DNA of 64,000 bases from a virus, in IMG/VR virus record IMGVR_UViG_3300025030_000060, positions 32,555 through 96,554 of that record; one strand, written 5' to 3'. A program made the position numbers and the translations under genes. The notes beneath the pieces were generated by a model that was not told the origin of the DNA, did not search any database, and worked only from the letters and a program-made list of their open reading frames with translations. Below, one piece after another: positions 2,908-20,705 of this stretch. The stretch's first letter is position 1, and each line of letters begins with the position of its first letter.

Positions 2908-4569
2908 TTAACTGTAAAAGCTGTCGATGTAGCCCTGAATTGATCGCGCCGACTCCATCAAGGCTTCACCGCCACCACTTTTCTCCTTCTCCTTGGCGGC
3001 GGCTTCCTCGGTAGCCTTCTTGGCGGCGGCTTCGGCAAGCTTCTTTGGGAACATGATCTTGAACTTCGCTTCATCCACTTTCATGATGTCGGTGAACAGG
3101 AAGTTCTCGAAGGCGTTTTTGTCGACTCCCAGCCATTCCTGATCCATCAGGCCCACGAGCTGCGCCATGCCGGTTGCGAGTTGGACGCGTCCCTCGCGGT
3201 TCTCCATCTCTTCGCGCTCCATGGCGGTCGAGACGCTGTTGAACACGATGCGGTAGGGCTTCTCGCCGGGGAGGAATGCCTTCTTGAATTTGTAGGCGAT
3301 ATGGATGTCGCAAAGCTGTTCGACGCCCGTCTGTATGGCATGCCGCAGCATCTGCGCCTTCATGGCAGCCATGACAGAAACACGGAAGAACCCGCCATCG
3401 CCAAGCCCCCCGGAAAGGTTCTCGCCAAAACCCAGCAGGGAAGGGTCGACGCCCAAGGCCCCGCATAGACGGTTGATGTGAAAGGTGATGTCGTTGATCG
3501 CTTCGATGTTCGGCGTGCCCTCGATAGTCGAGATGTCCAGCCGCGCCCGTCCGTCGCCGAAAATGGGGATCAGGTGGTTGATGACGGTCTGGATGAACCC
3601 CTTCTTGAGGCTTCTTTTTGCGTTGGCGGTATCCACCCGCTGCATCTGGCCTGCGACGATGTTCAGATACTGTGCCGCCTTCTGGGGGGAGAGCTTGCCG
3701 GTGTTGATGCCGATCATGCGCTCCATCCGGGATGCGTTTTTCCTGGACATGTTCAGGGAGAGGATCGCGTTGTTCAGGTCCATCCATGGCCCGTAGGATG
3801 TCTCCAACAGGCTCGTCCCGTAATTCTGGGATTCCGTGATGGAGTCGTCCTCGTAGTTGTCCACGGATAGGTCGAAGATCGAAGCGTCAACGCGGATAGG
3901 CTCCAGCAGGGACGGTTTCCACATGGGAATGCGGAACGGCACCATCTTCCACGGCTCCATAAGCTGAATGCCGCCCGTTTCCGGCTGTTGGTGCGCCGAG
4001 ACGTAGCCCGCCACGCCCCCGGCCTGCTCGTACATATTGACGAATTGGGGGTGAGTGTAGTAGTCGGAACGGACCTGCTTGATTCCTACGCCGTCCTCAC
4101 CGTAGACGCGGGCGAACCAGATGCCGTTGATCCCGGCGTTGTAGGCCCAGAACTGGCACTGGTCGTTGACTATTTTCTGAATGTTGTTGCGAAGGTCCAG
4201 GGTTATCGGGTCGGTTTCATCCCCGATACTCTCGATGGAGATGATCTCTCCGGTATCGGCCTTGGGGGAAAGCGCATGCGAGATATGCATCTTAATGGCT
4301 GAATCAATCGTCGGGTCCGTCGCCATGGTTCGGTAGACGTTGTAGCGGGCGAGGCGGGCCAAGGGAAGGTCTGTGATCTCCAGTTCGCCATCTTCGCCGG
4401 ACTCGGAGACCCCGCCAAGTTGAGACCCATCTTCGGCGAAATTCTCATAGATTGCGGAACCGGGAGGAAGTGCCAGCCCCCCCAAGTTCCTCGAATCAAC
4501 CTGTTGGGAACTGGGGAAGAGCTGCTTCCAAAATGGCTTCTTCGAGTTTTTATCTTCGGATGCGGCCAT
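2908..4569 (-). CDS. prt: Portal protein (P1 Prt-like)
   Basis: D..FH...LC.ALG.DPSLLGF...LSGGLGDGGFFR.S motif; start placed at MAASEDK (GGAG RBS, downstream of the predicted -10). Confidence 0.85.
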   Translation of the reverse strand: MAASEDKNSKKPFWKQLFPSSQQVDSRNLGGLALPPGSAIYENFAEDGSQLGGVSESGEDGELEITDLPLARLARYNVYRTMATDPTIDSAIKMHISHALSPKADTGEIISIESIGDETDPITLDLRNNIQKIVNDQCQFWAYNAGINGIWFARVYGEDGVGIKQVRSDYYTHPQFVNMYEQAGGVAGYVSAHQQPETGGIQLMEPWKMVPFRIPMWKPSLLEPIRVDASIFDLSVDNYEDDSITESQNYGTSLLETSYGPWMDLNNAILSLNMSRKNASRMERMIGINTGKLSPQKAAQYLNIVAGQMQRVDTANAKRSLKKGFIQTVINHLIPIFGDGRARLDISTIEGTPNIEAINDITFHINRLCGALGVDPSLLGFGENLSGGLGDGGFFRVSVMAAMKAQMLRHAIQTGVEQLCDIHIAYKFKKAFLPGEKPYRIVFNSVSTAMEREEMENREGRVQLATGMAQLVGLMDQEWLGVDKNAFENFLFTDIMKVDEAKFKIMFPKKLAEAAAKKATEEAAAKEKEKSGGGEALMESARSIQGYIDSFYS

Positions 4570-4602
4570 ATACACGGGCTCCATGGTATAGTTTCGCGCC
4601 AC

Positions 4603-4652
4603 AGCCTACTTGTACTAGCAGAGTTTAGAAAGGGTACTTTTAGGTATTATTG
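4603..4652 (-). promoter_or_regulatory. Putative late promoter of the portal operon
   Basis: CAATAATACC-N6-TACCCTTTCTAA-N16-TAGGCT; same element precedes the capsid gene. Confidence 0.65.
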
Positions 4653-4678
4653 GGTAATGCTGAGGAGTTGCGATGTGT

Positions 4679-4716
4679 AAAAATAAAAGCGCCCCTTCTT
4701 GAGAAAGGACGCTTTT
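4679..4716 (-). terminator. Rho-independent terminator
   Basis: AAAAGCG...CGCTTTT inverted repeat followed by a U-rich tract on the minus strand. Confidence 0.75.
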
Positions 4717-4840
4717 GTTGTGATCTCGCCGCGCACCCCTTCGTTTGCAGGCTATTGCGCTAATCACTCTCGCCATTCGGCATTATCCAGTACGGCCCTG
4801 ACGGCACTATTGCCGCTGCGGCTCCGGGGTATTTGGAGGG
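4680..4840 (-). ncRNA. Candidate structured small RNA (about 150 nt)
   Basis: No credible ORF; TTGACA-N18-TATATA upstream, terminator downstream; several GC-rich stems. Confidence 0.4.
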
Positions 4841-4870
4841 TATATACACCTAAAGTGACATAACTGTCAA
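4841..4870 (-). promoter_or_regulatory. Sigma70-type promoter with TGACA-N4-TGTCA palindrome over the -35
   Basis: Minus strand TTGACAGTTATGTCACTTTAGGTGTATATA. Confidence 0.55.
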
Positions 4871-4992
4871 GTGCGGCAGCATTTGCGTTTTCATTATCCC
4901 AACCAAACAGCTACAATCACTGAGCAATCCCGTTGATCGCCCTCGCGTGTTATGCCGCCGGTTGGCGAGATAATAACTAGTTAAACCGACCT

Positions 4993-5178
4993 TTATTCGT
5001 CTACCTTCGTCGGCTTCAGGGTTTCAGCTATATCCCGGAACCGCTGTAGTTCGCGCTGTACCGCCACCTTCGCCCTGTGCCCTAATTGGTTGCGTGGGTC
5101 GCTCAAGAGGTACGCAAGCTCGTTTGCCTCGTCCTTGAGCAAGACTACTGCCTGATCAATTGCTTCCTTTCTGGTCAT
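4993..5178 (-). CDS. Hypothetical protein (cassette 1)
   Basis: ORF with GAGG RBS, ATGA coupling to the upstream gene. Confidence 0.65.
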   Translation of the reverse strand: MTRKEAIDQAVVLLKDEANELAYLLSDPRNQLGHRAKVAVQRELQRFRDIAETLKPTKVDE

Positions 5179-5426
5179 GGCCGCACCGCCTCTGCCGCCT
5201 TATAGCCGTCGTTTCGACCCTGCCAGTAGTCGCTGTTTTCGTATTCTGCGACGAGCAACCGCAGTTCCTCATTTTCAGCCGTCAGCCGCTCCACCTCGTG
5301 GCTAAGATATGCAGTCCCGCCAGAGGGAGCATCCAGGTACGACCGCAGCCGCTCCACCTCGGTAATGATCGCCATGACTGTTGGAAAATCTCTGAATATA
5401 ATCTTCTGTCTTTGCAAGTCCATCAT
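5175..5426 (-). CDS. Hypothetical coiled-coil protein (cassette 1)
   Basis: GGGAGG RBS directly after the attC core. Confidence 0.7.
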   Translation of the reverse strand: MMDLQRQKIIFRDFPTVMAIITEVERLRSYLDAPSGGTAYLSHEVERLTAENEELRLLVAEYENSDYWQGRNDGYKAAEAVRP

Positions 5427-5436
5427 CCCTCCCAGG

Positions 5437-5487
5437 GTTTAACCCCTCGCTCGTCCGCTGGCGCGGCCAGCTCGCAAACCGTTATCC
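5437..5487 (+). repeat. attC site 1
   Basis: GTTTAAC ccctc GCTCGTCC ... GGCCAGC tcgcaaacc GTTATCC. Confidence 0.75.
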
Positions 5488-6003
5488 CTCGAACTCCGGG
5501 TTAAAATTCGGACAGGAAAAATCGCCGTGGGTCTGAACCGATCCTTTGCCACTACCAAACGTGATGTTTAGCCGGAACATTGGCACGGTGTCTTTCCCAA
5601 ACTCACCGAAAAGGTCGATCATGCAAGTCCGATACTCGCCTGTCAGCTCTTTAACGTAGTGCATCCCCTGTGAACCCCAGGCTTTGCACTGCCGGCACTT
5701 GCCGGTTGCCTCTTCGAGGCCCTCACCGTTGAGGCAACGGGGGATCTCCGCGCCGATGGTATCCGGTACCCGCCCGCCGCCCTGATCCTCCTGGAAGCAC
5801 ATCACCCTCTCAACCAGCAGTTCGATACTCTTGATATGCTCCGGGTTAGCACCCAACTCAATGCATTTGTACTTATACGTTTGAAGGGCGGCAGGGACAG
5901 CAGCGTCCTTTGCGCAGAGCAGGAGCGAGTCGACCTCTGTGTACTTCTTGCCGTTCACCGGGTTAAAGGCATGAATCTGGAATTTGCGGTCAATTACGCT
6001 CAT
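5482..6003 (-). CDS. Hypothetical phage protein with C-terminal Cys motif (cassette 2)
   Basis: LL.AKD.A.P.AL..Y phage motif; CRQC...C...FSC; stop TAA lies in the attC core. Confidence 0.75.
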   Translation of the reverse strand: MSVIDRKFQIHAFNPVNGKKYTEVDSLLLCAKDAAVPAALQTYKYKCIELGANPEHIKSIELLVERVMCFQEDQGGGRVPDTIGAEIPRCLNGEGLEEATGKCRQCKAWGSQGMHYVKELTGEYRTCMIDLFGEFGKDTVPMFRLNITFGSGKGSVQTHGDFSCPNFNPEFEG

Positions 6004-6029
6004 GAATTTTCTCCGTTTTATAGTGCCAG

Positions 6030-6078
6030 GGATAACCCGGCGCTGGTCCGCTGCGCGGGCAGCTTGGTTGCGTTAAAC
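6030..6078 (+). repeat. attC site 2
   Basis: GGATAAC ccggc GCTGGTCC ... GGGCAGC ttggttgc GTTAAAC. Confidence 0.75.
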
Positions 6079-6345
6079 CAGAATGATTTCTCTTGCGTTA
6101 ATGGAACAGTTATCGGATATCGGAGAAGTCCCATACCAGCGCAGGTACCACTTACCGTTGACGCCCTTGGCTTTCCACATCTTCCCCTCGTAAACTCCCG
6201 ATGGTATAGACGACGAATACTCGGCCAGAAAATTAAATGTCTTTTCGGACATCAGCGCGTGAGTGCCGTCAATCTCGATTGCAGACCGATGCGGTTGATT
6301 CCAGTACGCGCCCAGAGGGTCTGTCATTGCAGGTATCTCGCTCAT
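6073..6345 (-). CDS. Conserved hypothetical phage protein (cassette 3)
   Basis: DPLG.YW.QP...L.EYS.S.PSGVY.GKMWK motif typical of small phage proteins. Confidence 0.75.
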   Translation of the reverse strand: MSEIPAMTDPLGAYWNQPHRSAIEIDGTHALMSEKTFNFLAEYSSSIPSGVYEGKMWKAKGVNGKWYLRWYGTSPISDNCSINAREIILV

Positions 6346-6623
6346 AGCCGCACCGCCTCTGCTTTAGCCATGTCCAGAAGTTCAATGAGCTTTTCGTCAG
6401 AGACATCGGCCTTTGCTGCCAAAACTGCAACTACGGCGTGCAGCGCATCCCTCTGGACAGTGACCCGCTCCACCTCACCAGAGAGTGAGTTGACCATAGA
6501 CCGTAACTCCCCGATCTCGCCTTTGAGATCATCACACGCGCCGTGAGGGCATACCTTCGGAAGCGCTGCCTCAGCCGTTGACCTACCTCTACCTTGATAC
6601 ATGTACCCTTTAGCGTCACCCAT
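6342..6623 (-). CDS. Hypothetical coiled-coil protein (cassette 3)
   Basis: GGAGG RBS after the attC core. Confidence 0.7.
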   Translation of the reverse strand: MGDAKGYMYQGRGRSTAEAALPKVCPHGACDDLKGEIGELRSMVNSLSGEVERVTVQRDALHAVVAVLAAKADVSDEKLIELLDMAKAEAVRL

Positions 6624-6640
6624 CTCTTCATCCCTCCAAA

Positions 6641-6728
6641 GTTTAACCAGCAGGTCGAGGCGACCGAGCCGGTGGTAGTGAGCAGGAGTTGGCGAGAGTT
6701 CCCGCGCCTCACCTGCGGTCCGTTAAAC
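6641..6728 (+). repeat. attC site 3
   Basis: GTTTAAC cagca GGTCGAGG ... CCTCACC tgcggtcc GTTAAAC; extrahelical C at L'' position 4 as in canonical attC. Confidence 0.85.
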
Positions 6729-6884
6729 CGGCTCCTGGAACCTTGCTTTTTTTGCAGTCTCTTTGACTACTTCAACGTCCCAAGAGGCACCATCTTCCCC
6801 AATTTTACGGATTGCATCCTCTTTCGATTCAGCCTCTATGCAGGCGGTCTCTTTTATCGTCCTGGTGACTTGATACCAGTTCAT
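6723..6884 (-). CDS. Small hypothetical protein (cassette 4)
   Basis: Start MNWYQV at the junction repeat; IEAES.EDA phage motif. Confidence 0.65.
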   Translation of the reverse strand: MNWYQVTRTIKETACIEAESKEDAIRKIGEDGASWDVEVVKETAKKARFQEPV

Positions 6885-7237
6885 AGCCGCACCGCCTCTG
6901 CCTTGCGAGCGTTTTGCATGGTGCTCGCGAAGCAACTGGCTGTCGCAGCCGTGTTTTCGTAGTGGGTTTGCATGGAGCGCAATGCCCTAGCCAGGGTGCC
7001 GTCTTCCGATGTCGAGTGCCACGGCGTTTTCTTGCCGTAGCCGGAGATTTTCACTTCGTACTTGGCTTTGCCGTCCTTCTCCCTCCTCTCCACCTGGAGG
7101 GTCGAAAGCCTGTTGAATCCACTGCTCTGTATCCCGGTGGCGCGTAGGTACCCTTCGGGGTTGGACGACTTGTGCACCGTCCAATCGTAGCCGGGCATGA
7201 TCTTGACCAGTTCTTTTCTGAAATCTGCTGGACTCAT
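6881..7237 (-). CDS. Hypothetical phage protein (cassette 4)
   Basis: GGAGG RBS after the attC core. Confidence 0.75.
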   Translation of the reverse strand: MSPADFRKELVKIMPGYDWTVHKSSNPEGYLRATGIQSSGFNRLSTLQVERREKDGKAKYEVKISGYGKKTPWHSTSEDGTLARALRSMQTHYENTAATASCFASTMQNARKAEAVRL

Positions 7238-7252
7238 TGTTTACCTCCCAGG

Positions 7253-7300
7253 GTTTAACCAATCGCCGCAGCCATCCGGCTGGGCTCAAAAGCGTTAGGC
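7253..7300 (+). repeat. attC site 4
   Basis: GTTTAAC caatc GCCGCAGC ... GCTGGGC tcaaaagc GTTAGGC. Confidence 0.85.
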
Positions 7301-7477
7301 CTTTATGTCCTTCACTGTCCCGATAATCTTAATTTTTGAGTGCTCGCCCCAGCGTGACGTAGCAGTTCCGGTTTCCAACATTTGAGTTCTGATACGAAAC
7401 GCCTCCCATCGTCTACCAAGACTGAATACGATAAGCAGCACGCCAATTACCGCTAAAACAAGTATTGTTGTAATCAA
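7295..7477 (-). CDS. Small membrane protein (cassette 5)
   Basis: N-terminal TM helix; GGAGG RBS. Confidence 0.65.
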   Translation of the reverse strand: MITTILVLAVIGVLLIVFSLGRRWEAFRIRTQMLETGTATSRWGEHSKIKIIGTVKDIKA

Positions 7478-7505
7478 CTTTCCCTCCTCCTAGCCCACTG
7501 AAGGG

Positions 7506-7572
7506 CAATAACCAGTGCTCGGACGCCGACCGGCAAACAACGTCGGACGGGTCAAGCACATGGCCGTTAACC
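7506..7572 (+). repeat. attC site 5 (more degenerate)
   Basis: CAATAAC cagtg CTCGGACG ccgac...gtcgg ... GGTCAAG cacatggcc GTTAACC. Confidence 0.6.
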
Positions 7573-7812
7573 CGATTTTGCCGCCCTCTTCAGCGTCTTC
7601 GCCACCTTCGAGGTGATCGCTTCGCGCATGAATTCGGTTTCACCCTCTCCGGTGATCTCTCGCGCCTTGCTAATTCCCTCATACTCGCCGCAGGTAAAGC
7701 GTATCCCTTTGCTGACCTTCAGCGGGTTCTCTTTCCTGTAGTCCTTCTTTCGGCCCGCTCCCGGTTTTGCACCTCCAAGAGGTTTCCCGTTGGCATTAAA
7801 TCCTTTTGGCAT
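7567..7812 (-). CDS. Small DNA-binding protein (GGA.PGAGRK segment plus ribbon-helix-helix-like domain)
   Basis: GGAKPGAGRKK followed by beta-strand and two helices; AGGAG RBS. Confidence 0.6.
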   Translation of the reverse strand: MPKGFNANGKPLGGAKPGAGRKKDYRKENPLKVSKGIRFTCGEYEGISKAREITGEGETEFMREAITSKVAKTLKRAAKSG

Positions 7813-7864
7813 CGCTGTCTCTCCTATGTATTGGGCTCATGGCCTTCGAAGATATCTGTCAACA

Positions 7865-8005
7865 TTAAGCATTCCCAGCTCCGCATGTCGCGCAAGAAAA
7901 ACCCGCGCTGCCGTGAGCCTGCGCCCACTCGCCGACATGAATAACCCTTTTGCACTGATTGCACGTCTTAGGGTCGGTGATCTTAACCACCACGACACGG
8001 CTCAT
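7865..8005 (-). CDS. 46-aa zinc-ribbon protein (not in ORF track)
   Basis: MSRVVVVKITDPKTCNQC...CATC; ATGA overlap with the upstream stop, AAGGAG RBS. Confidence 0.5.
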   Translation of the reverse strand: MSRVVVVKITDPKTCNQCKRVIHVGEWAQAHGSAGFSCATCGAGNA

Positions 8006-9156
8006 TTTAACTCCTTCAGTTCCACAAGTACGCCATATGCTTCGTCATGGTGCAACGTCCCGTAGGCGCTTTCGCTTACCTTTTCGATAAACCCGCACAT
8101 GAGGGCGAAGGCTTTTTCAATCCGCTCCGCGTTCTGGAGTGCAGCCATGAACAGTACCGCCAGGGCCTCGCTCTCGGCGTCCCCTTGCGGGCCAAAAGGG
8201 GCTACGAGCGCATGCGGGGTGAAGACTGCGACATGGGGTCCGGGATAGGTCGAGCCAGAGAGCTTGCCGTGAATCTCCCCCTCCCATATGCCTACCCCCA
8301 GCAAACCACCCCCGAACTTTTCAGCCAGCATCTTCATGGCGTGGACTGTCTGGATGACGTTCATGTCCTTAAGCGCGACGCAGTTCTCCGGGGGTGTATC
8401 CTCTTCAGCCATCAGTTTCACTGGGGGGGCAATGCGATCCCCCCTTCGGTTAAATGTGGCTCCAGGTTCCGCATCAAAATCGTGCTCTTCTTCGGCGCGA
8501 CAACGGGCACACGTCGGGTTTTTGTCCCCGTTCGGGTCCTCATCCATCACACTCAACTCATCTCCGCAACCAAGGCAAGGTGCAAGAGCCTCATAGACCT
8601 CCCGCGAGATATAGGAGTCTTCATCGACCAGGACCAACTTCTTCGTGTGGTGCCCGCCATGTTTAGGGTCTATCACGATGTTGTCGGCAGATGGCGCGTA
8701 TTCAGGCGCGTGAAGTCCGTCGCAGCGATCCCCAGTAATGCAGCAGTCGGGGCCGCACTCGCTATGGTTCCCCGGTACAGGGGTCCCGGAGATATCAAGG
8801 GAGTGATGCACCCCAGCATGGCCGTAGCAGTCGCGCACGTAATCCGCGCCCTCCTTGGCGGTGATGTTCCCGTTACATCGCGAACAAAGCCCGTAGCCGG
8901 TATCCTGATTGAACCATTGCTTGAAGGCCGGGGCATCTTCCCCGCAGCAGGCGCAGTGCAGATGGAAGACGCGGCACTTGAGCGAAGACTCAAGGTACTT
9001 TGCCAGTTTCGCGCCCTGCTCGGTCCACTCCATGCCGAAGCCTACGATACGGACCCACCCTATGGTGCAAGCGGCCACGAGAATTGCGGTATCCGTGGGG
9101 TTGTTGGGGAGGGTTCCAGTAGCCACCAGTTTTCTGACATCCACGATGGTAATCAT
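8002..9156 (-). CDS. Mosaic hypothetical protein with several Cys/Zn motifs
   Basis: Start MITIVDV coupled to the upstream stop; CACCG...W.N.D.GYGLC..C motif. Confidence 0.7.
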   Translation of the reverse strand: MITIVDVRKLVATGTLPNNPTDTAILVAACTIGWVRIVGFGMEWTEQGAKLAKYLESSLKCRVFHLHCACCGEDAPAFKQWFNQDTGYGLCSRCNGNITAKEGADYVRDCYGHAGVHHSLDISGTPVPGNHSECGPDCCITGDRCDGLHAPEYAPSADNIVIDPKHGGHHTKKLVLVDEDSYISREVYEALAPCLGCGDELSVMDEDPNGDKNPTCARCRAEEEHDFDAEPGATFNRRGDRIAPPVKLMAEEDTPPENCVALKDMNVIQTVHAMKMLAEKFGGGLLGVGIWEGEIHGKLSGSTYPGPHVAVFTPHALVAPFGPQGDAESEALAVLFMAALQNAERIEKAFALMCGFIEKVSESAYGTLHHDEAYGVLVELKELK

Positions 9157-10079
9157 GCCCTGTTCTCCTGCATCCTTTTGATGACTTCGGCAGCCCTGCC
9201 GTTCTGTTCCACGAGGTAGTCGTAGCATCCCATGTCAAAACTGCCGCCGTCGTCATCTTGGAACTCTCCATCTCCGACGTACTGGCAGATTAACCCGTCG
9301 CGGTCATCGTCATCGAAGCCGCAGTACCACTTGCCCACGGTCGGCTCCTTCAACTCAGGCTTATTGGTAGCGGGGTTGAGTATCGGGAACATGTGCGCCC
9401 CTTCCAGAACGGCCTTGTGAATGGCGGTGCCGATCTCCAAAGCGGTCTTGCTGGCCAGTTTGCGGCCTTCGCCAAGTGGCGAATAGCGGCACATGCCGAT
9501 CTGCTCCGGCATTTCTCCGATGATCTCGATATCCCACCCGTCAGAGTTGCCGCGATTCCTCCTGTGTTGCAGTTCGAAGCCTCGGCGCTGCATGATGGCG
9601 TCCACGGCTGCCTCTATAGCCGCTTTCGCATCGGACTCGCTACCGTTGCCCAAAGCAAGGGTGACATTCTTCCATTCGTGCCGGTTCGGCTCGCTGTTCA
9701 GCCAACGGGTGTGAAACATATCGGCCACGGCTTCCATCGTCAGCGGCGATAAAACCCCTTTGGCATAGGCGCGGGCCTCTTCTACGTCCTGCTGCATCCC
9801 GGCGCTCATCCGGTGTCCGCCCTGCATCCTCATCAGTATCTCTCCGAGGTTGTAGTGGCAGTGTTCCGCAAGATACAGGTATACCAGTTGCTGACGAGCC
9901 TCGGCCCGAATCTCTTCCGGGGTGATGACGGCCATCTCCGCTTCCAGCAGACCCGCTTCGGAGCGGTTGCCCAAAATCACCATCGCTTGGCTCAGAATCA
10001 GGGCTCGGCTGTTGTCGAACCTAGCCGAAATCTCATTTGATACTGTGACTCGGATTCTTGAGTTCTCATATACTGGCAT
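9153..10079 (-). CDS. Hypothetical protein, first gene of the accessory operon
   Basis: GGAGG RBS before MPVYEN; promoter upstream. Confidence 0.7.
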   Translation of the reverse strand: MPVYENSRIRVTVSNEISARFDNSRALILSQAMVILGNRSEAGLLEAEMAVITPEEIRAEARQQLVYLYLAEHCHYNLGEILMRMQGGHRMSAGMQQDVEEARAYAKGVLSPLTMEAVADMFHTRWLNSEPNRHEWKNVTLALGNGSESDAKAAIEAAVDAIMQRRGFELQHRRNRGNSDGWDIEIIGEMPEQIGMCRYSPLGEGRKLASKTALEIGTAIHKAVLEGAHMFPILNPATNKPELKEPTVGKWYCGFDDDDRDGLICQYVGDGEFQDDDGGSFDMGCYDYLVEQNGRAAEVIKRMQENRA

Positions 10080-10145
10080 GTCTGTTACCTCCCTGGCGCT
10101 GGCCGCCACCCGCGTTGCGCCATCCAGGCGCTATGTCATGGCCCT

Positions 10146-10177
10146 AAATATACACTCTTTGGATTATGTGTCAAACA
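10146..10177 (-). promoter_or_regulatory. Sigma70-type promoter with overlapping repeated operator
   Basis: TGTTTGACACATAAT; TTGACA-N16-TATATT. Confidence 0.65.
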
Positions 10178-10189
10178 AATAATGCACGC

Positions 10190-10221
10190 AAAAAAGGGGG
10201 CACGCTTTCACGCTCCCCCTT
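10190..10221 (-). terminator. Rho-independent terminator after ulx
   Basis: AAGGGGG/CCCCCTT stem and T-run on the minus strand. Confidence 0.6.
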
Positions 10222-10243
10222 CACTCCAGCTATTACCGCTCTT

Positions 10244-10648
10244 TTATGGCTTCTTGACTGCCGCCCTCTGCTCCATGTCCTCGTCGTTGGAGAAGAACTT
10301 GATCGGGTCTTCGTCCGTATCAAGGACGTGCTGCGCCTCGTGCATGATCCCCCGCCCTACCTGCGCGTCCTGATAGGCGAAGGCCGCCAGCAGGTCAAGG
10401 GTCTCGTCGCCATAGGTCATGGTCTCGGTCCACTCGTCTTCAATGGTCTGTCCAAAGGCAGCCTCATCACGTTTCAGGAATGCCGCCTTCACCAGCCACC
10501 ACCACGGGCCAAAACTACGATAGCGCAGCGGGTCCTTGAGAAGAACACGCTTGACCACTGCGAGGAATCCTTCAGCCCACATGTCTCGGGCTTGGCCCGA
10601 TTCGGCCAGCATGGCGTTCAATTCTTCGGCTTTCGGTTTATAGATCAT
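10244..10648 (-). CDS. ulx: Ulx-like protein (DarB incorporation helper)
   Basis: LLKDP..YRSFGP.W motif resembling P1 Ulx; immediately downstream of darB. Confidence 0.75.
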   Translation of the reverse strand: MIYKPKAEELNAMLAESGQARDMWAEGFLAVVKRVLLKDPLRYRSFGPWWWLVKAAFLKRDEAAFGQTIEDEWTETMTYGDETLDLLAAFAYQDAQVGRGIMHEAQHVLDTDEDPIKFFSNDEDMEQRAAVKKP

Positions 10649-10705: not shown

Positions 10706-13700
10706 TTACGCCATCAGTTTGTAGACCTCGGCAAGGTCGGTGGAAATCGGAACATACCACCACGCCCCGTTGAAGTCGCCGCCCGTCTCGGAGAAGAACT
10801 GCGCGGTCCATCGGGTTTTCATCATTGGGCTCACTCTTCTCAGTACCCCGTTGAATCCGTTCTTGTCCTGGAAGAACCAGCTCGTGAAGGGGGCATGGCT
10901 CTTTGCCGGACGCCCCTTATAGCCGGGGATGACCACGTTGGTGTTGTTGGTCTTGACGGTGATCCCCAAGGCGAGGAAAGCGGCTTTCACCTGTTCAGGG
11001 ACTTCTTTGAAGTTGGGGTCGTTCCTGATGGCCTCCAGTGCTGCACGTTCAGCCTCAGCCTTGGCCTGCGCCTCCTTGGCCCGTATATCCTCCTTGAGCC
11101 GGTTCAGGTACTGGTCGGCGATACGGGTAATCTCGCTCGTGTTATCGCCAAGGGCCTGTGCTGCCGTCTTAATCTCCCCGGCTGCCAAGTCCACGCTTCG
11201 CCCAACGACTACCCCGCCAAGGCTTACCTGCTTTTCCATAGCAGCCTTCCATGCCGTGGCGCATGCCGTCAATATCTCTACTTCAGTCGCCTTCCTGCCG
11301 TACTCGCTGGCTATAGCGTCGTAGCCGCTCCCGAATACCAGCCGCATGACACTGTTGGCATCGTAAGCGCGGCCCGCCCGCTTCAGGCTTAGGTATGCCT
11401 CGCATACTTCTTTTTTCCACGTCTCGTTGTCCACATCGGGGTAATTCACAGTCAAGCCCGTCTGGGGCTTGCCGAACATCACCCCCTGCGCCCCTCTCAG
11501 CACGAAACCGTCGTAGCTGTAAAAACGGATTTTGTCGTAATGCTCGGTGAAGGTTTCCCTGTCGAGGTCGCCCCGGAGCAGGTCGGCATAGCGCCACTCC
11601 TGGCTGAGAAGTTTCTGGAGAGCCATTTCCTTTTCGGAGTAGGAGACCTTGACCGGAGAGCGGTCGGCAATGAAGTCCTGCACGTCGTACCACTCATTGT
11701 CCGACTGTTTGGGTATAGAATTCCAGTTGAGCTGGCCCATCAAGGCGTCGGCCTTGAACCCCCTCGAAGCGGAGTTCACTTCGATGACCTTGATGACAAT
11801 CGTACCGGAGTAGCTGTCCTTAAACTCATACATGTCGCCCACGGTGAGCACCACACCCTTGGGAGTCACCACACAGTTGCCGGGGTTGTCGATCAGCTTC
11901 TCATCAAAGGGAAGTTCCCCTTTCTGTGCCCTTACCCTCAGTTCAAGGGTGATCTTGTTGATGCGGGCCTGCACTTCGGCCTTTTTGTTGTTGTAGCGCG
12001 TGTCGAGGCTGTCCAGCTTCCATTGGGTCCTCTCCAGCGCGTCCTGTTTCTTCTGAATGGACTTGGAGATGTTTTTGCGCTCTTCGCTCCCCTCTTCCGT
12101 CCTCAAGCCCCGGTAGCGCAGATTCTCGATCTGCCTGTTCATGTCGGAGATGTCTTCGGCAAGATTGGTGCGCTCGGCCTCTTTTTCCTGCTCCAGTCTC
12201 GGCAGCACGGAAGCATTGGACGCCAGCACCTGGAGCTGGTTCACGAGTCGGGCCTTGGCCTGCGCCTTGGCCTTTTCCGCCTTCTTGGCTTCGGCTTCCA
12301 TGTACTTCCGCTTGGCCTCTTCCGGGTTATCCTCGAACATGAACCGGATTTCGTCGGCGCTTGCAGCATTGGCGTTGGCTGCGGTCGCTGAGTCGGAGCG
12401 GAAGATGTCACCGATCCATCCCGCCTTCTTGCTTATCAGGTGCAGGCGGTAGGCGTCGAAGGAACCCTTGCCTTGATAGTAGTAAATCTTGATATTGTCG
12501 GCCTCGTTGCCTTGCCGGACTCCGCGCCCGTTGCGCTGCTGGATGCTGGAAGGGGTCCACGGGAAGGTCAGGTGATGGATTGCGCGGGTCCCCTTCTGTA
12601 GGTTGACGCCCACTTCGGCCTTCTGGTTGCAGATGACCATCGAGTATTCCCCGGAGTTGTAGCGGTCGCTGATCCGCTGAAGCTCGGAACCCTTCGCCTC
12701 GTCGGCGTTGATGATGCCGATCTTGCCCCGGAGCATCGGCAGGTAGTGGGTAAGGATGCGCGCCACCTTTTGATGTTGGGCCTTTTCATCGCTGAAAATG
12801 ATCTGCTTGCCGCCCAGTTCGTGGATCTTCTGCACCCTGTCCACCATCAGTGCGTACTTCGGAGTCAGCGGGTGCCCCACGGTGCCCACGTCGAGTTTCA
12901 CGTCCCGGAGCTTCTTGGCGTCCATCAGGAACGGCTCGAAGGCGTCGGCAAGGCGCACGATGAAGGCATCCCCCTTCATGCTGGTCTCCAGCGAATCCAA
13001 GAGGCGGTAAGTACGGTTTACCGGTTTCTGCGGTTCGCCCATTTCGGCCCGTTCAAGGTCATACTCCGGGTCGCCAACGCGGGGAGTAACCCGGACGGTG
13101 ACTTCAGGCGGTATGATCTTCAAAAGCTGCGTTACCTTCCCCTGGTCCCCCTTTGCAAAGTGAAATGTCATTCTCCCGTGGAAGATGTCCGGGTCCATGG
13201 AAACCTGCTCCATGTCGCGGATGATGGAAAAGACGGGGCGGGGCTTGCCGCTGAATGTCGAACTGTCATCCTTGGTCGCGGCCTTGGCCTCTTCCCTCAG
13301 TTCGTCGTAGATATCCTGCTGCTCGTCGGTAAGGATGGCTTCCTCATGGAATTCCTCACTGGGAGGAAGGTCGAGATTCACGTCCTTTGCCGTGCGAAGC
13401 AGGCAGTATTTGTGGAAGATGTTGCGGAGCCCGTCGAGGTTCTGGAAGCCAACAAGCCCTTCCGTCGCCTTGGTCTCGTTGGCGATGGTCATCTTGTCCA
13501 CGATGTCCTTCTGTCCGAAAACCCGGATGAAGTCGTCGGGGGTGAAGACGCCGAACCGCTCGAATTCCTCCAGCGGCATGACGTAGGCCAGCATGTTGAA
13601 GATTTCCACCGGGGAGTTGGTGACGGGCGTCGCCGTGAGCCCGTAAGAGCCCCGGTCGTTGTTGTTTGCCCGGATGTGCCCCATTTTCATCTGCATGTCG

Positions 13701-16700
13701 AGCCCGCGCTGTGACGCCGGGGCGGTAGAGACGTAGGCAAGGCGGCTGGCCTCTTCGCCCGCCTCGAAGCTGTTCTTGTAGGAGTGGAATTCGTCTGTGA
13801 TTACGTCGGTGAAACCCATGTCCTCAAAGTACGGCAGTTCCCCTTTTTTGGCCCCGGTGTCGGCAAATTTCCCCTCGGCGCGCTCTACCTGCTTGACCTC
13901 GTTGTAGTTCAGGGACTTCTCGTCGCCTACCTCGTCGTCCTTCCCCTCGGAGTTGGCTTTGATGGCCTGCTTAGAGAGCAGGCCGCGCTGGCTCCATTTG
14001 TCGATGAACCCCTGCTTCGTGTCAGGCCGGAGCGGGATGCTCTTGAACTTCTCGTAGGTCATCACCACGAGTTTCACGTTGCTCTGCGGAATCTGCCACA
14101 TGTCATCGTATACTTCCGTGGCGTCAAACTCCCCGGATGCAATCTTGTCCTGCCACATGGCCTCTTTGGTGTACTTGTTGATTTTCTGGTTCCCCTCCTC
14201 GTCAAGAACCGGCTCCTGAAGAATTGCCCCTTCCTTGGCGCGGTCAAAGCGCATCCCCACGAACAGGGCGTCGTCCATGCCCTCGTAGTAGTTCCGTGCC
14301 TCGTGGTACCAGTTGGAAAAGACCGCCTTGGGGACCACGATACAGGTCTTCTTGCTGCGCCCCATCTGGAGGTTGTACTTCACCAAAGCGAGCGTTTGCA
14401 AGGTTTTACCAAGCCCTACGTCGTCGGCGAGGATGCCGCGCCCTTCCTCGGAAAAACGCCGGATGGCCGCGTTCTGGTAGCCGTGCAGCACGATTTTCTT
14501 ACTGACCCCCTGAAGCCCCAAGTCGGTCATCTCGTACTCCGGGGGAAGGAAAGCGTTGAACTTCATGTTGTACTGTTCCGCCAGTTCGTCAATGTTGGGC
14601 TGCTGCTGCATCCACATATTGAAGGTTTCGCGGAAGTTTTTGATGTTGTCGTAATACTGTTTTTTTAGGTCGCCGTCGTCGTCGCCCTTACCACCCCGGA
14701 TGGCATTGCCGTTCATGTAGTTCTCGAACTGGAGGTCGAAGCCTGCGGGTTTCTTGCCCCCCAGAATGCGGAAGGAGCCGAAGGGATTCTCCGGGTCCTC
14801 CGTCCACTCCTTCGCGGTACGCATCTTGCCGGAGTAGGGATCTTCTTTTTGAACTTCCTGGTCGGAACCATAGGTGACGTTGGGGTAGCCGTTCTCCTTC
14901 AGGAAGTCCAGCACGTACTGCTTCGAGTACCACTTGTGGTTGAAGTCGAACATGATATCGGCAGGGTTCGTTCGCTTGCGCTTCCCGTCGATGATCCCGA
15001 TCATCTGCATGTACTTCTGCTTGATCCGCTCGTCGGTCTCGTCGGCCATGGCGGCGTAGAGGGCCTGAAGTTTGGGGTAGATGTCGCCGGAGCAGTAGCG
15101 GGACATCGGGTAGATGATGCCGTCCGGGGAGATGGCTACGTTATCAAAGGCGGCGAGGTCGCCCAGTGTCGCCACCGGCATGCCCCCGGTGTAAAGCTTC
15201 TGCACGTCGTCAAGTTCGATGGTCTGAATGCCTTCCCGGATGAACAGGTGTTCCACGAGTGCCTGCACGTTGGTGGAATCGTATTGAAGATGCCGCCCCG
15301 ATTCTTCCAGCGTCCCGTTCAGGAGGTCGGAGAAGTTCCCCTTTGCGTCGAGCGCATTGGAGAAAAGCCCGAACATCTTGGAAGACTCCCCGGTGAGCAT
15401 GATGCCCCGGTTGTTCTTCGGGTGCCCGAAGCGGTCAATCTCGTTTGCCACAAGGTCCTGGAGTGCAAGCCGTTCGCTGTCATCCGCGTTGCCGTCGTTG
15501 AACCGATCCTGGTAGCGGGCAATCATGCCACCGATGATGGAGCCCCTGTAGAGCTGTTCCGCTAGTTCTTCCTTGGGCTGGCTCATGGCGAACTCAATAG
15601 CCGCACTGGCAAGGGCCGGTAGAAGGTCGGGATAGGTCTTGAAAATGGCGAAAAGCTGGTAGACGGTGAAGGAAAGGCACCCCTTGGGAGAGCCAAGGCG
15701 GGCCTTCAGCTCTTCGATGCTGGATGCGCCGTACTTGGCTGGGTCAATCGCTTCTTTGGCATCCACGGAGGCGACACGGACCCATGCGCCATGCTGCATC
15801 TCACACTCGATGCCGTTTATCATCTTGCGGTCGCCGTCCACGTAATTGCGCGTAACAGGTTCCGCCACGGAGAGCGCGGCCCAGTCGATCCGGGAGACGA
15901 ACTTTGAGGCCAGCTTCGCCTTCAGGCCCGCGTCGTCAACGTCGCCGTCCACGGCTTCCCGGCTGAACCTGTCGCCTGCAATCTTCGGGACCCACTTGCC
16001 CATGATGAAGGGCCGCCCCTCGCCCAGCCAGTAGCGCCCCGCTATGAACTCGTCAAAGATGACGTTGGTGCTTATCAGGGTCTCGAAGGTGAGGTCGTTC
16101 ACGACGTCCAGAAGGCTTTGCGGGTGCTTGCGAAAGACAACCACGTCAACGACGGTATCGGTGCCCTGCGCTGCGAAGGTTTTGGAGGGGAGCTTGTGAG
16201 CGCCAAGGAACTCGGCCTTGCGGGAAACGGAGTTGCGCCACTTGGCCCAGTCGGTCGAGCCCTTGGCCCCCACGATGTCGGTCGGCACGATCAGGACGGC
16301 GAGCCCCCCAGGCTTGATCTTGTCCAGAATCCGGGAGATGAAGTACCGCTGAATCTTCCCCTCGTTCTTGTAGGGCGGGTCGTCGAACTTGTAGGCCCCA
16401 CGGGCGTCGCCGAAGGGCACGTTGGTGCAGCAGCCGTCGAAGGAGTTGTCCGGGGTGTCGGAGCAGAACTTCTCGAAGCTCTTGTTGGTGATGGAGTCGC
16501 CCGCGTTGAGAAGCTGCGCCACCTTCGAGGCGGTCGGGTCGAGGTCGCAGCCGGTGATGACGATGCCCCCCGGTTTTGTCGCCGAAAACATGCCGTGGCC
16601 GGTGCTGGGGTCCAGGATGTTGCCATTGGCTAGGCCGTTGGCAACAAGGCCACTCCAGACGCCTTCAGCGACGTGCTGAGGGGTGTAGTATTCGTACTGG

Positions 16701-17023
16701 GAGTTGTCGGAGAGCCCCCCCTTGCCGGAATACTGCTTCAGGGTCGCCCTTTCCTCTTCGGTGAGGTCTCCGGGGTTGTTGACGCGGGAAAGGATCTCCT
16801 TGGCCGCTTTGTTCAGCTTCTCACGGGCCTTCTTGCCGCGAACCAGTAGCCCGTAGTCGCTGTTCTCGTTCTTGTAGTCGTTGGGGTCCTTCGGCGGGTC
16901 CTGTCCGGGGATGCTGATCTTGAAGAGGGTTGCGAAGACCTTGGCAAAATCAAGGAATGATGTGGCTTGCGAAATACTGAGTTTCGCAAAACCAAGGGCG
17001 GTAGTACCGGGGTTGACTCGCAT
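10706..17023 (-). CDS. darB: DarB antirestriction protein (N6-adenine methyltransferase plus SNF2-type helicase)
   Basis: EYYTP, LDPSTG.G, NVPF methylase motifs; DDVGLGKT, DEFH, TATP, QRNGRGVRQGN helicase motifs; start at MRVNPG with AAGGAG RBS. Confidence 0.92.
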   Translation of the reverse strand: MRVNPGTTALGFAKLSISQATSFLDFAKVFATLFKISIPGQDPPKDPNDYKNENSDYGLLVRGKKAREKLNKAAKEILSRVNNPGDLTEEERATLKQYSGKGGLSDNSQYEYYTPQHVAEGVWSGLVANGLANGNILDPSTGHGMFSATKPGGIVITGCDLDPTASKVAQLLNAGDSITNKSFEKFCSDTPDNSFDGCCTNVPFGDARGAYKFDDPPYKNEGKIQRYFISRILDKIKPGGLAVLIVPTDIVGAKGSTDWAKWRNSVSRKAEFLGAHKLPSKTFAAQGTDTVVDVVVFRKHPQSLLDVVNDLTFETLISTNVIFDEFIAGRYWLGEGRPFIMGKWVPKIAGDRFSREAVDGDVDDAGLKAKLASKFVSRIDWAALSVAEPVTRNYVDGDRKMINGIECEMQHGAWVRVASVDAKEAIDPAKYGASSIEELKARLGSPKGCLSFTVYQLFAIFKTYPDLLPALASAAIEFAMSQPKEELAEQLYRGSIIGGMIARYQDRFNDGNADDSERLALQDLVANEIDRFGHPKNNRGIMLTGESSKMFGLFSNALDAKGNFSDLLNGTLEESGRHLQYDSTNVQALVEHLFIREGIQTIELDDVQKLYTGGMPVATLGDLAAFDNVAISPDGIIYPMSRYCSGDIYPKLQALYAAMADETDERIKQKYMQMIGIIDGKRKRTNPADIMFDFNHKWYSKQYVLDFLKENGYPNVTYGSDQEVQKEDPYSGKMRTAKEWTEDPENPFGSFRILGGKKPAGFDLQFENYMNGNAIRGGKGDDDGDLKKQYYDNIKNFRETFNMWMQQQPNIDELAEQYNMKFNAFLPPEYEMTDLGLQGVSKKIVLHGYQNAAIRRFSEEGRGILADDVGLGKTLQTLALVKYNLQMGRSKKTCIVVPKAVFSNWYHEARNYYEGMDDALFVGMRFDRAKEGAILQEPVLDEEGNQKINKYTKEAMWQDKIASGEFDATEVYDDMWQIPQSNVKLVVMTYEKFKSIPLRPDTKQGFIDKWSQRGLLSKQAIKANSEGKDDEVGDEKSLNYNEVKQVERAEGKFADTGAKKGELPYFEDMGFTDVITDEFHSYKNSFEAGEEASRLAYVSTAPASQRGLDMQMKMGHIRANNNDRGSYGLTATPVTNSPVEIFNMLAYVMPLEEFERFGVFTPDDFIRVFGQKDIVDKMTIANETKATEGLVGFQNLDGLRNIFHKYCLLRTAKDVNLDLPPSEEFHEEAILTDEQQDIYDELREEAKAATKDDSSTFSGKPRPVFSIIRDMEQVSMDPDIFHGRMTFHFAKGDQGKVTQLLKIIPPEVTVRVTPRVGDPEYDLERAEMGEPQKPVNRTYRLLDSLETSMKGDAFIVRLADAFEPFLMDAKKLRDVKLDVGTVGHPLTPKYALMVDRVQKIHELGGKQIIFSDEKAQHQKVARILTHYLPMLRGKIGIINADEAKGSELQRISDRYNSGEYSMVICNQKAEVGVNLQKGTRAIHHLTFPWTPSSIQQRNGRGVRQGNEADNIKIYYYQGKGSFDAYRLHLISKKAGWIGDIFRSDSATAANANAASADEIRFMFEDNPEEAKRKYMEAEAKKAEKAKAQAKARLVNQLQVLASNASVLPRLEQEKEAERTNLAEDISDMNRQIENLRYRGLRTEEGSEERKNISKSIQKKQDALERTQWKLDSLDTRYNNKKAEVQARINKITLELRVRAQKGELPFDEKLIDNPGNCVVTPKGVVLTVGDMYEFKDSYSGTIVIKVIEVNSASRGFKADALMGQLNWNSIPKQSDNEWYDVQDFIADRSPVKVSYSEKEMALQKLLSQEWRYADLLRGDLDRETFTEHYDKIRFYSYDGFVLRGAQGVMFGKPQTGLTVNYPDVDNETWKKEVCEAYLSLKRAGRAYDANSVMRLVFGSGYDAIASEYGRKATEVEILTACATAWKAAMEKQVSLGGVVVGRSVDLAAGEIKTAAQALGDNTSEITRIADQYLNRLKEDIRAKEAQAKAEAERAALEAIRNDPNFKEVPEQVKAAFLALGITVKTNNTNVVIPGYKGRPAKSHAPFTSWFFQDKNGFNGVLRRVSPMMKTRWTAQFFSETGGDFNGAWWYVPISTDLAEVYKLMA

Positions 17024-17045
17024 GGATGCTCCTTGAAGGGGAGTT

Positions 17046-17090
17046 AAAAAAACATTCGCGGCGGCATTTGACATATAATGCCGCCGCGAA
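17046..17090 (-). terminator. Terminator between the polyvalent gene and darB
   Basis: Perfect 14-bp stem TTCGCGGCGGCATT/AATGCCGCCGCGAA followed by TGTTTTTTT. Confidence 0.7.
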
Positions 17091-17117
17091 GTCCATGCTT
17101 ATTACTGTTTGCTCAGG

Positions 17118-20100: not shown

Positions 20101-20705
20101 ATGTTGGTGCCGTCTTTCGGACCTATCTCTACTATCGTCAGATAGTCTTTCGCAGCATCCCGATATATAAAAAGAACGCTTTTCTCTCTATGCTGTGTAA
20201 GAAAACTCGTGCCTACGTTGGGAAGAATCTCAGTCGGGTGCGTTACGGCCAGTCTCAGGTATTTTTCGTCGTCCTTAGTGAGCTGATTGCCATGTCGATT
20301 GCGGATATAAACGATGGTACTGCCATCTATCGCTATCACGCTCTCTTCAGTGTCAAACCCTAGCGCCCTGACTTCCTGCAAGGCTTTACCTTGCAAGCGT
20401 CCCAATACGCTCGGCTTGAGACGCCACTCAGCATCAGCCGATTCCGTAATAAACCCATCTTCGGCCATGGCTGCGTAAAGCTCATCGCGCCATACACCGC
20501 CGTGTTGTACCGCACTTTCCATAACCGCCCCGATCCCCATGGATTTTTTGAAGACGCCCGTGACGTACTTCCAGAAGCCTTCCCCATCCGACTCTTTGAG
20601 GCCGTTCTCCCCGGCTATCACCTTCGCCTGTTTCCAGCGTTTATCCGCTTCGGCAAGGTCGATGCCAGAATCATCCGCTATGGATTTTACAAGAGCTGCG
20701 GGCAT
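17118..20705 (-). CDS. Large polyvalent head protein (PBECR-type RNase domain, inorganic pyrophosphatase-like domain, further unknown domains)
   Basis: PT.AQ.EAGNY..GH...GL.ISIENP.GS.RSG...DGDHVD...DE.KV.LG InPase motif; YIRNRH...P..I PBECR-like segment. Confidence 0.8.
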   Translation of the reverse strand: MPAALVKSIADDSGIDLAEADKRWKQAKVIAGENGLKESDGEGFWKYVTGVFKKSMGIGAVMESAVQHGGVWRDELYAAMAEDGFITESADAEWRLKPSVLGRLQGKALQEVRALGFDTEESVIAIDGSTIVYIRNRHGNQLTKDDEKYLRLAVTHPTEILPNVGTSFLTQHREKSVLFIYRDAAKDYLTIVEIGPKDGTNIVWNFWKLSGPKANKYLSKFRQEKARILAHGGATVNIPHVPPTDESGGKSEGLSESRKQEAGSGPTVSKDDKPVKPILESATAEEVHAAAHEAATSHLNDLPHPTQAQLEAGNYRHGHITMHGLRISIENPKGSKRSGIDPDGTPWEVTMAATYGFFKGTLAKDGDHVDCYIGDHPESELVFIVDQVDAKTGRYDEAKVYLGTLSQKEARDLYIAGFSDGKGAKRLGAMTAMHMPDFKEWLSAGDTTKPLSDVILEAAFTESDLREWAQRSPLAWKARILDAVSFDDIQAAFAQKWPGFIDPPSTSKIIETFRNEEDGTEARVAKVEKGYSVTLKDLDSGEVVPVANIYPDLETAIMKAKEAAGVINRLTNNQDGFKVVASTDKEGAMKSEVEVSRQNVTVAEFFRAIKAACEKKGLAFDLDRETFENPSRPSDDTYSVTNGVKHARYGKGEPTRESDGSDAPAKAETVRIQPYDYQCYIHNLDGSVFNEICEFSFDDEKRGHGYYYQVSRDADVKETEPTPATTDPDATYKEWEQSLNRKGAPTMQASRLIDAMLRSGIKRDEFKVSTERGKDGSFGDAIVKGTMSATVAEHTEALLRNGLNVFWYVPQGRDSMTAMVAAGKEWHSAEAHLDWAGEAGTLTVYDVVKFDARESGGTTTFAPDQMEEARALAKSIQSMQPAPAIPKNPKTGPQRVAVLRSIAAGIPGMQDYLARMDAVTTKREMENLDNDKFELIPSLRGSKEQIGDLDLYWTVADLRDQKEREINKRLKEEAQTAKLEKEQEKTVKKEQEDATLKRHKERPELKKVLDLISADFRTEIVQSITTRFTVMVERYFTDGDFNLLRPGRSGNQWENQTYARVSEELAPLMVPTRKLNPNWQNVMAKLASDSADFYIEQFENKMAWKLGDVLERKGGGDVALFGNVRDHAIRMTFPDKSGFQVRTQQVISTSVNGKVFARYPTTFHDVVLASGERMPVPSAAKMQKEFGITEDKSGE

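Follow-up and report, generated by a model that had tools for sequence, protein, structure and literature searches.

The question raised by this locus is whether the imperfect hairpins that separate small accessory genes in the genome of an uncultivated groundwater phage are the recombination sites of an integron. The stretch of DNA that was analysed, hereafter the window, has 64,000 nucleotides and comprises bases 32555–96554 of the linear 96.5-kb IMG/VR virus record IMGVR_UViG_3300025030_000060, which is estimated to be 84% complete. All positions given without a contig label are those of the window. A preliminary description, made from the letters of the sequence, had proposed that five attC sites between 4981 and 7572 package phage accessory genes as integron cassettes, with the genes inverted and without an integrase. 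Our analysis indicates that the region 4945–7300, perhaps extending to 7572, is in all likelihood an integron cassette array with an attI site and no integrase, that is, a cluster of attC sites lacking an integron integrase (CALIN) plus attI, lying within a phage operon. The array is probably served in trans.

The cores of the proposed sites are GTTAAAC at 4980, 6072, and 6722, GTTTAAC at 5437, 6641, and 7253, GTTATCC at 5481, GGATAAC at 6030, and GTTAGGC at 7294, and every core quoted in the preliminary description was found at its position. Five minus-strand open reading frames (ORFs) stop at 5482, 6073, 6723, 7295, and 7567, each on a TAA inside a core, as had also been described. Four sites, S1 (5437–5487), S2 (6030–6078), S3 (6641–6728), and S4 (7253–7300), share the proposed plus-strand order of R″, 5 nt, L″ with one extra base, a variable hairpin, L′, 8–9 nt, and R′, and all four have the minus strand as their bottom strand. 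On the top strand, S1 runs from R″ GTTTAAC to R′ GTTATCC and S4 from R″ GTTTAAC to R′ GTTAGGC. Read on the minus strand, the 5′ half of a site consists of xxxTAAC, whose TAA is the stop codon of the preceding gene, 8–9 nt, and three base pairs. The core has an inner stem of 4–8 bp, a loop of 2–42 nt, and one bulged G (sometimes C) on the 3′ arm. The 3′ half completes the three base pairs and continues with exactly 5 nt, GTTAxxC, a ribosome-binding site, and the next ATG. S3 is of a long type with a 42-nt variable terminal part, and the site detector resolved it as an 8-nt spacer, 3 bp, the bulged G, 6 bp, and a 5-nt spacer. A fifth site, S5 (7506–7572, minus strand), is unconfirmed; both boxes and an imperfect hairpin can be drawn there by hand in the same geometry.

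We searched IMG/VR with two short motifs and found more than ten further viral contigs with the same elements; these contigs and loci are referred to below by L or G numbers. Three covariance models were then compared: R1, built from 19 sites; R3, built from sites of other contigs only and thus independent of the window; and R2, built only from nine attC sites of the chromosomal integron of Rhodanobacter lycopersici. R1 found 32 sites in the phage loci. Within the 96.5-kb genome its only matches were S1, S2, S4, and, at a weak score, S3 of the long type, every one on the minus strand. In the 64 kb of the window, R3 recovered S1 (58.3 bits, E 3.9e-12), S2 (42.5 bits, E 3.7e-8), S4 (E 2.8e-7), and S3 (E 6.5e-4), again all on the minus strand, and the next match had an E value of 1.3. 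The bacterial model R2, applied to the same 64 kb, placed S4 first (22.2 bits, E 0.0011) and S3 second (E 0.18).

Comparison across the family showed that the L-box helix is 96% paired, with compensatory changes in all six of its pairs. Its covariation score was 0.348, which none of 500 shuffles reached; the shuffles scored 0.127, and slid partners scored at most 0.109. TAAC and GTTA are present in S1–S4, and both columns are invariant over 19 sites; the strict R/Y box consensus is not kept by several boxes, such as GGATAAC and GTTATCC. In the family as a whole the 5′ spacer measures 5–9 nt and the 3′ spacer 5 nt. The S1 hairpin is 98% identical to a site in L014. Relatives of S3 occur in L006, G005, L011, and L001, where the outer 3 bp show compensatory changes (GGT/ACC, TGT/ACA, CAT/ATG). 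An exact-pattern search with a rigid site gave no match because the sites vary, and a loose geometric detector requiring AAC and GTT only performed at shuffle level (383 versus 319 matches) and was dropped for harvesting bacterial attC sites. Rfam gave no family match in 4400–10400. Judged from these sequence comparisons, we regard S1–S4 as real attC-type recombination sites. Of the five attC sites first proposed, S1–S4 were borne out in anatomy and by R1, R3, and the R2 cross-matches to S4 and S3, while S5 was matched by no model.

The hairpins might instead be RNA-level intercistronic elements, such as mRNA stabilisers, processing signals, or translational signals, or regulatory cassettes resembling the PeSLs of T4-type phages, and not recombinase sites. 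Their position agrees with such a function, for they are transcribed in the sense direction, with a stop codon on one side and the ribosome-binding site of the following gene on the other, and a conserved leader, CCTGGGAGG, comes after the 3′ box. PeSLs are promoter-plus-stem-loop motifs that mediate modular shuffling in T4-like phages and are thought to act via homologous recombination (PMC2839356, PMC4122927). Like them, the sites described here are short conserved intergenic motifs that flank small accessory genes in a hyperplastic region, and relatives differ by whole modules. Unlike PeSLs, however, they have attC geometry, an attI site, and an associated IntI, and a scan for promoter hexamers and terminator T runs flagged none at them. 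An RNA function would also leave unexplained the complementarity of boxes within each cassette, the attI homology, the adjacency to IntI, and the cross-matches with bacterial attC sites on the intI strand, all of which are considered here or below. We therefore hold this explanation to be very improbable, and a secondary RNA effect of the hairpins is possible. N4-type hairpin promoters and nut-like antitermination sites were also considered and were dropped, as this is a myovirus without a giant virion RNA polymerase and as neither would explain the box complementarity.

The box complementarity appears when a cassette is followed from end to end. Within the family, the three variable bases of a cassette's opening GTTAxxC are complementary to those of its own closing xxxTAAC in 22 of 27 cassettes. 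Where the box is not the commonest one, 8 of 11 cassettes are complementary; the shuffle mean was 0.8, and none of 200,000 shuffles reached this number. The two boxes of a single site match in only 8 of 31 cases. Further complementary ends are GTTAGGC...GCCTAAC in L001, L011, and G005, and GTTATAG/CTATAAC in L006. This per-cassette complementarity is the classical hybrid-core signature of cassettes that would have passed through a circular form.

At least four cassettes are shown in the window, all on the minus strand and, as had been proposed, all with complementary ends. Cassette 1 (4981–5481) carries genes at 5175–5426 (83 aa) and 4993–5178 (61 aa) together with S1, and its ends are GTTAAAC and GTTTAAC. 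Cassette 2 (5482–6072) carries one gene, 5482–6003, together with S2; the 173-aa product is Cys-rich and belongs to no family. The ends of cassette 2, TTATCC and GGATAA, are complementary to each other, and each fails to match its partner box within the site to which it belongs. This pair also flanks a homologue of the 173-aa gene in L004 (8019–8609); at the homologue in L032 the flanks are degenerate. Cassette 3 (6073–6722) carries genes at 6342–6623 (93 aa) and 6073–6345 (90 aa, phrog_24427) with S3, and cassette 4 (6723–7294) carries genes at 6881–7237 (118 aa) and 6723–6884 (53 aa) with S4. A homologue of the 118-aa gene is found in a cassette of L005. A possible fifth cassette (7295–7572, minus strand) would consist of a gene at 7295–7477, encoding a membrane-like protein of 60 aa, and the unconfirmed S5.

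The strand on which the genes lie was compared with published attC sites and with bacterial loci fetched as a control around relatives of an integron integrase. From 5′ to 3′, the bottom strand of an attC site begins with R′ (RYYYAAC, where AAC is cleaved) and ends with R″ (GTTRRRY), and its extrahelical bases lie near L″ (Nivina et al., PMC5027507); the minus strand of the window has this anatomy. In the control locus from Rhodanobacter lycopersici (L097), R1 found at least 12 regular 57-nt repeats upstream of intI on the intI strand, which is the bottom strand in a canonical integron. These repeats have the 3 bp, the bulged G, and the 5-nt spacer of the phage sites, and their 5′ spacer is 6 nt. 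In the phage arrays, the 5′ box holds the end of a same-strand ORF at 31 of 36 sites, and at 35 of 36 a same-strand ORF starts within 45 nt past the 3′ box. In the Rhodanobacter control, model matches and ORFs occupy opposite strands at all 12 sites. From the bottom-strand anatomy together with the opposite ORF strand in the bacterial control, it follows that the phage cassette genes are inverted, in agreement with the preliminary description. The canonical layout, in which the ORF lies on the attC top strand and is read away from intI and attI from the cassette promoter Pc, was not found in the window.

At the end of the array we identified an attI-like docking site (4945–4986, minus strand). 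It consists of a crossover box, GTTAAAC, at 4980–4986 of the plus strand, with G|TT between 4980 and 4981, and a core of about 35 nt at 4945–4979. The core is about 81% identical over 44–52 nt to the sequence that separates the last cassette from the start of IntI in G005 (locus L131). A consensus of TACTnATTATC...CGGCGGnATA, reaching about 35 nt past the final AA|C, is shared by the IntI-bearing contigs G005, L132, L134, and L135 and by the arrays without an integrase in the window, L001, L005, L011, L014, and L004. The window shares this consensus with the IntI-bearing contigs and has therefore retained its docking site. In the window (4700–4945), L001, L005, L011, and L014, a conserved non-coding segment, GAGGGCGATCAAC ... 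GGATAATGAAAAYGCAAA, was observed past attI. It occupies the place that the IntI gene has in the other contigs, and in the window it reaches the terminator before the portal gene.

G005 is the record IMGVR_UViG_3300025013_000119, which carries the site family together with portal and terminase genes. Its integrase of 388 aa scores 362 bits on TIGR02249 (cut-off 265) and aligns over its full length with VchIntIA (2A3V; E 1e-67); the alignment takes in the catalytic motifs and the insertion specific to IntI. The start codon of this intI lies 47 nt past the AA|C of the last cassette, on the strand of the cassette genes. About 30 AG dinucleotides stand directly after its stop codon (L131:9170–9230). 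Homologues of the G005 integrase (74, 71, and 64% identity) are encoded in the viral contigs L132, L134, and L135, with R1 sites directly upstream on the intI strand; in L132, a ThyX cassette stands before the integrase gene, and the genes for terminase, portal, and head protease come after it. Across 185,579 species genomes the best bacterial IntI relative had 52% identity, and the relatives were taxonomically scattered. A complete integron, with intI adjoining attI and the array, is thus present in G005, L132, L134, and L135 and not in this phage genome, which has the composition of a CALIN, with four sites within 1.9 kb and no intI in the 96.5-kb record.

The sites could also be substrates of a recombinase other than IntI, for example a small enzyme resembling Xer, of the kind present in other integron-like phage systems. 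Ordinary tyrosine recombinases are encoded in the related contigs G001, G002, and G004, and two are encoded in G005 besides IntI. However, these other recombinases do not adjoin the arrays, and the gene that abuts attI in four contigs is a bona fide IntI, whose IntI-specific insertion could be aligned to 2A3V. We consider a non-IntI enzyme the least probable of the explanations.

Comparisons between contigs provided signs that the cassettes are mobile. The portal gene of L001 is 98% and its backbone 94% identical to those of this phage (range 94–98%); the similarity breaks at 4983, inside the attI-side box, and wholly different genes lie beyond it in L001. Between G005 and L006, a NADAR-domain cassette is 99% identical over 239 nt, beginning exactly at the 5′ box, and between L016 and L028, 90% homology starts 2 nt before a 5′ box. 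The check that variation between related phages should fall at the G|TT cores was therefore answered by breakpoints at boxes in three contig comparisons. In the latter two pairs the hairpin moves together with its downstream gene, as would be expected if crossover took place at AA|C of the coding strand. Within the Logan assemblies, contigs break at S1 and just past S5, and one X1 contig departs from the attI region at 4963 into a first cassette of the L001 type, which we take as a weak hint only.

Several observations weigh against an active cassette array. In the assembled Logan contigs of four metagenome runs, searched for 4700–7900, we found no excised circle and no empty-site junction; the joints that were found have sides of only 22–36 nt, involve the 21-nt junction repeat described below and the sites, and probably come from other phages. 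Neither TIGR02249 nor PF00589 has a match in the 96.5-kb record, which is 84% complete, and tblastn gave no trace of IntI in it. It thus encodes neither an integron integrase, whose absence had been described at first, nor another tyrosine recombinase, and therefore the activity of the array would depend here on a partner not seen in the record. The IntI-bearing relatives are metagenomic contigs whose backbones are unrelated to this phage. The R′–L′ spacer is 8–9 nt in S1–S4, exceeding the canonical 6 nt that is also found in the bacterial control, so the longer spacer of the preliminary description is real, and the bulged base is C, not G, in some sites. The scores of the bacterial model were modest (22 and 14.5 bits). 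Minimum free energy folds of single sites were barely more stable than those of shuffles (z −0.3 to −2.5), and the R-box pairing was absent from them; because these folds were weak, the site structure was derived by comparison. S5 was not detected at E≤10 by R1, R2, or R3, the ends of cassette 5 are not complementary, and the S5 box GTTATTG mismatches the cassette end, so that S5 and its cassette do not fit.

Some of these points would be accounted for if the array were a relic, with genuine attC sites inherited from an IntI-bearing ancestor that are no longer recombined, and with relatives that differ through homologous recombination over the 45–50-nt sites and their flanks. The absence of IntI from this genome and the one cassette with mismatched ends and a degenerate site (S5) agree with this, as does a solo 3′ box without a hairpin in L005. 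Hairpins of otherwise different cassettes are 95–98% identical and would offer homology for general recombination. However, four of the five cassettes have perfectly complementary ends, and the L-box structure is intact. L001, with its 94–98% identical backbone, has entirely different genes at the attI-proximal position, which is where IntI would insert, and the IntI-bearing contigs come from the same IMG sample series as the relatives of the window. A relic is in our view unlikely, and we prefer an array of cassettes that is still served by an integrase from elsewhere.

For this preferred reading the following course may be proposed. Along the direction of its genes, a cassette consists of C, 8–9 nt, the L box, the variable loop, 5 nt, GTTAxxC, a ribosome-binding site, one or two genes, and xxxTAA. 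Crossover at AA|C would fall directly past the stop codon, and the two ends of a circular cassette would jointly make the R box. IntI supplied in trans would excise cassettes and insert them at attI, so that new cassettes would enter at the promoter-distal end, adjoining attI. Expression would come by read-through from the promoter at 10174–10147 and not from Pc. The enzyme might come from a host integron or from a phage of the IntI-bearing lineage that co-infects the cell or resides in it. The preliminary description had named a host or distant IntI; the site family and homologous attI directly upstream of IntI genes in four phage contigs, the complementary ends, and the breakpoints give indirect support to the action of an IntI on the array, and a phage-borne IntI is at least as likely a source. 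As the bottom strand lies on the coding (non-template) strand, folding of the sites may be favoured during transcription or lagging-strand synthesis; if replication and the genes run in one direction, the coding strand would also serve as template for the lagging strand.

The operon in which the array lies was also examined. The minus strand holds every gene from 10109 down to 4993, and the array forms the 3′ end of this accessory-gene operon, directly upstream of the portal gene (4602–2908). A sigma-70-like promoter (10147–10174, minus strand; 11 of 12 consensus matches) opens the operon of which the array is part, close to the position near 10150 first given for it. A strong intrinsic-terminator-like hairpin (4685–4716, minus strand), with a 14-bp stem and a T run, lies between attI and the portal gene and closes the operon, so that promoter and terminator frame it. 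A relative of the 408-aa gene upstream of the cassettes is found in L050 (54% identity), without sites.

The phage is a myovirus, encoding a tail sheath, a baseplate, a T4-like portal, and a GH108 lysin. It also encodes DarB-like and Hdf-like anti-restriction proteins and a polyvalent protein of 1195 aa, and is Dar-positive. Upstream of the array operon, window positions 10706–20705 encode the DarB-like methyltransferase/helicase of 2122 aa and the 1195-aa protein, which has InPase and PBECR3 nuclease-like domains. No relative was found by distant BLAST against 50,697 GenBank phages. In the same phage genome, outside the window (L007:3845–4105), the first gene of one L001 cassette has a paralogue (N-terminus MGDNNGCG...), which lies in a tightly packed early-gene block without attC sites around it.

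Inside the two-gene cassettes, a 21-nt repeat, GCAGAGGCGGTGCGGCYATGA, marks the junction between the genes (5175–5196, 6342–6362, and 6881–6901, minus strand). It encodes the C-terminus AEAVR(L/P), a ribosome-binding site, and an overlapping ATGA. A near-identical junction is also present in L001, L005 (three copies), L006, G005, and L134, in otherwise unrelated two-gene cassettes. In such cassettes the C-terminus of the first protein is always AEAVR(L/P/G/S), encoded by identical codons. An exact match to an 18-mer of the junction is found in 26 IMG/VR contigs, and the junction stands as an island of identity of 26–47 nt between unrelated genes across contigs. The repeat might serve in translational coupling, in recombination as a second joint, or in tagging the C-terminus.

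Related phage cassettes carry, among others, genes for a NADAR-domain protein (PF08719) in G005 (L049:3793–4647) and L006 (13692–13885), an N6/N4-type DNA methyltransferase (L134:6623–7360), and a ThyX-like thymidylate synthase (L132:6911–7642). Some of the NADAR, methyltransferase, and ThyX cargo may have roles in counter-defence or nucleotide metabolism. In a cassette of L001 (1187–1324), a 138-nt tRNA-like element, with an acceptor stem and a T arm and a CCA-like end, was observed between two small genes. It scores 14.8 bits on the Rfam model of transfer-messenger RNA, against a threshold of 47, and its identification as a tRNA was dropped because ARAGORN finds none.

Compared with the sedentary chromosomal integrons and CALINs, represented here by Rhodanobacter lycopersici (L097), the phage arrays are similar in their R′ and R″ boxes with conserved AAC and GTT, in an L box of 3 bp, in the bulged base on the 3′ arm of the bottom strand followed by a further stem, and in the 5-nt L″–R″ spacer. 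A variable terminal part, homogeneous sites within each lineage, and complementary cassette ends are also common to both, as is, in the relatives of this phage, an attI site beside the 5′ end of intI. They differ in that the phage ORFs are all on the bottom strand, co-directional with intI and with the stop codon in the R′ box, and in that the R′–L′ spacer is 8–9 nt and not 6. Furthermore, the phage array is read from a distal phage promoter, so that new cassettes would land promoter-distal, and it carries phage accessory cargo in a virus, beside head-morphogenesis genes. In the 'inverted integrase' integrons, such as that of Treponema denticola, intI and the cassette ORFs are co-directional, as they are here. 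In those integrons it is intI that is turned around with respect to attI, and the ORF precedes attC in each cassette, as is usual. Here, in contrast, the arrangement of intI, attI, and attC is canonical and the ORFs are flipped within the cassettes.

Integrons in phages have been reported previously. A screen of 10,705 phage genomes yielded three complete integrons and 17 CALINs, and phage attC sites were shown to be recombined by IntI1 (Qi et al. 2023, PMC9892861). The three complete integrons look like captured host or plasmid integrons, from Vibrio, Shewanella, and, in a P1 phage, class 1 (PMC9892861). The arrays described here resemble those phage integrons and CALINs in the clustering of attC sites in phage genomes without an integrase and in the methyltransferase cargo, as in L134. 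Unlike them, they are associated with a distinct IntI lineage (at most 52% identity to bacterial IntI in the genome collection searched) that is present in several phage contigs with its own attI and attC, and their cassettes are uniformly reversed. Neither reversed cassettes nor a phage-specific IntI lineage is in Qi et al. 2023 (PMC9892861), and no other paper on them was found in the literature searched. Integron parts in phages are thus already published, and the reversed phage-native layout appears, from the literature searched, to be unpublished.

Taken beyond this genome, the family somewhat favours the existence of a phage-native integron system, in which an IntI lineage distinct from others, having an attI and an attC family of its own, sits beside packaging and head genes and handles cassettes that are carried backwards. 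In these the ORF lies on the recombinogenic strand and the stop codon within the crossover box, so that the array as a whole is transcribed along with a phage operon. Through this system, phages of unrelated lineages with common hosts would exchange accessory genes and likely anti-defence genes (NADAR, methyltransferase, ThyX), and phages without an integrase would borrow the enzyme in trans. Integrons are known as gene-capture devices of bacteria; here the machinery appears to be adapted to phages, with its own integrase lineage, docking site, cargo, and reversed cassettes. The reversed layout is a natural experiment on strand choice, transcription, and replication in relation to attC folding, and it bears on the birth of cassettes, as the stop codon coincides with the crossover point. 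If the cassettes are mobile, they would provide a site-specific route by which small accessory genes move between unrelated phage backbones, possibly also exchanging with bacterial integrons.

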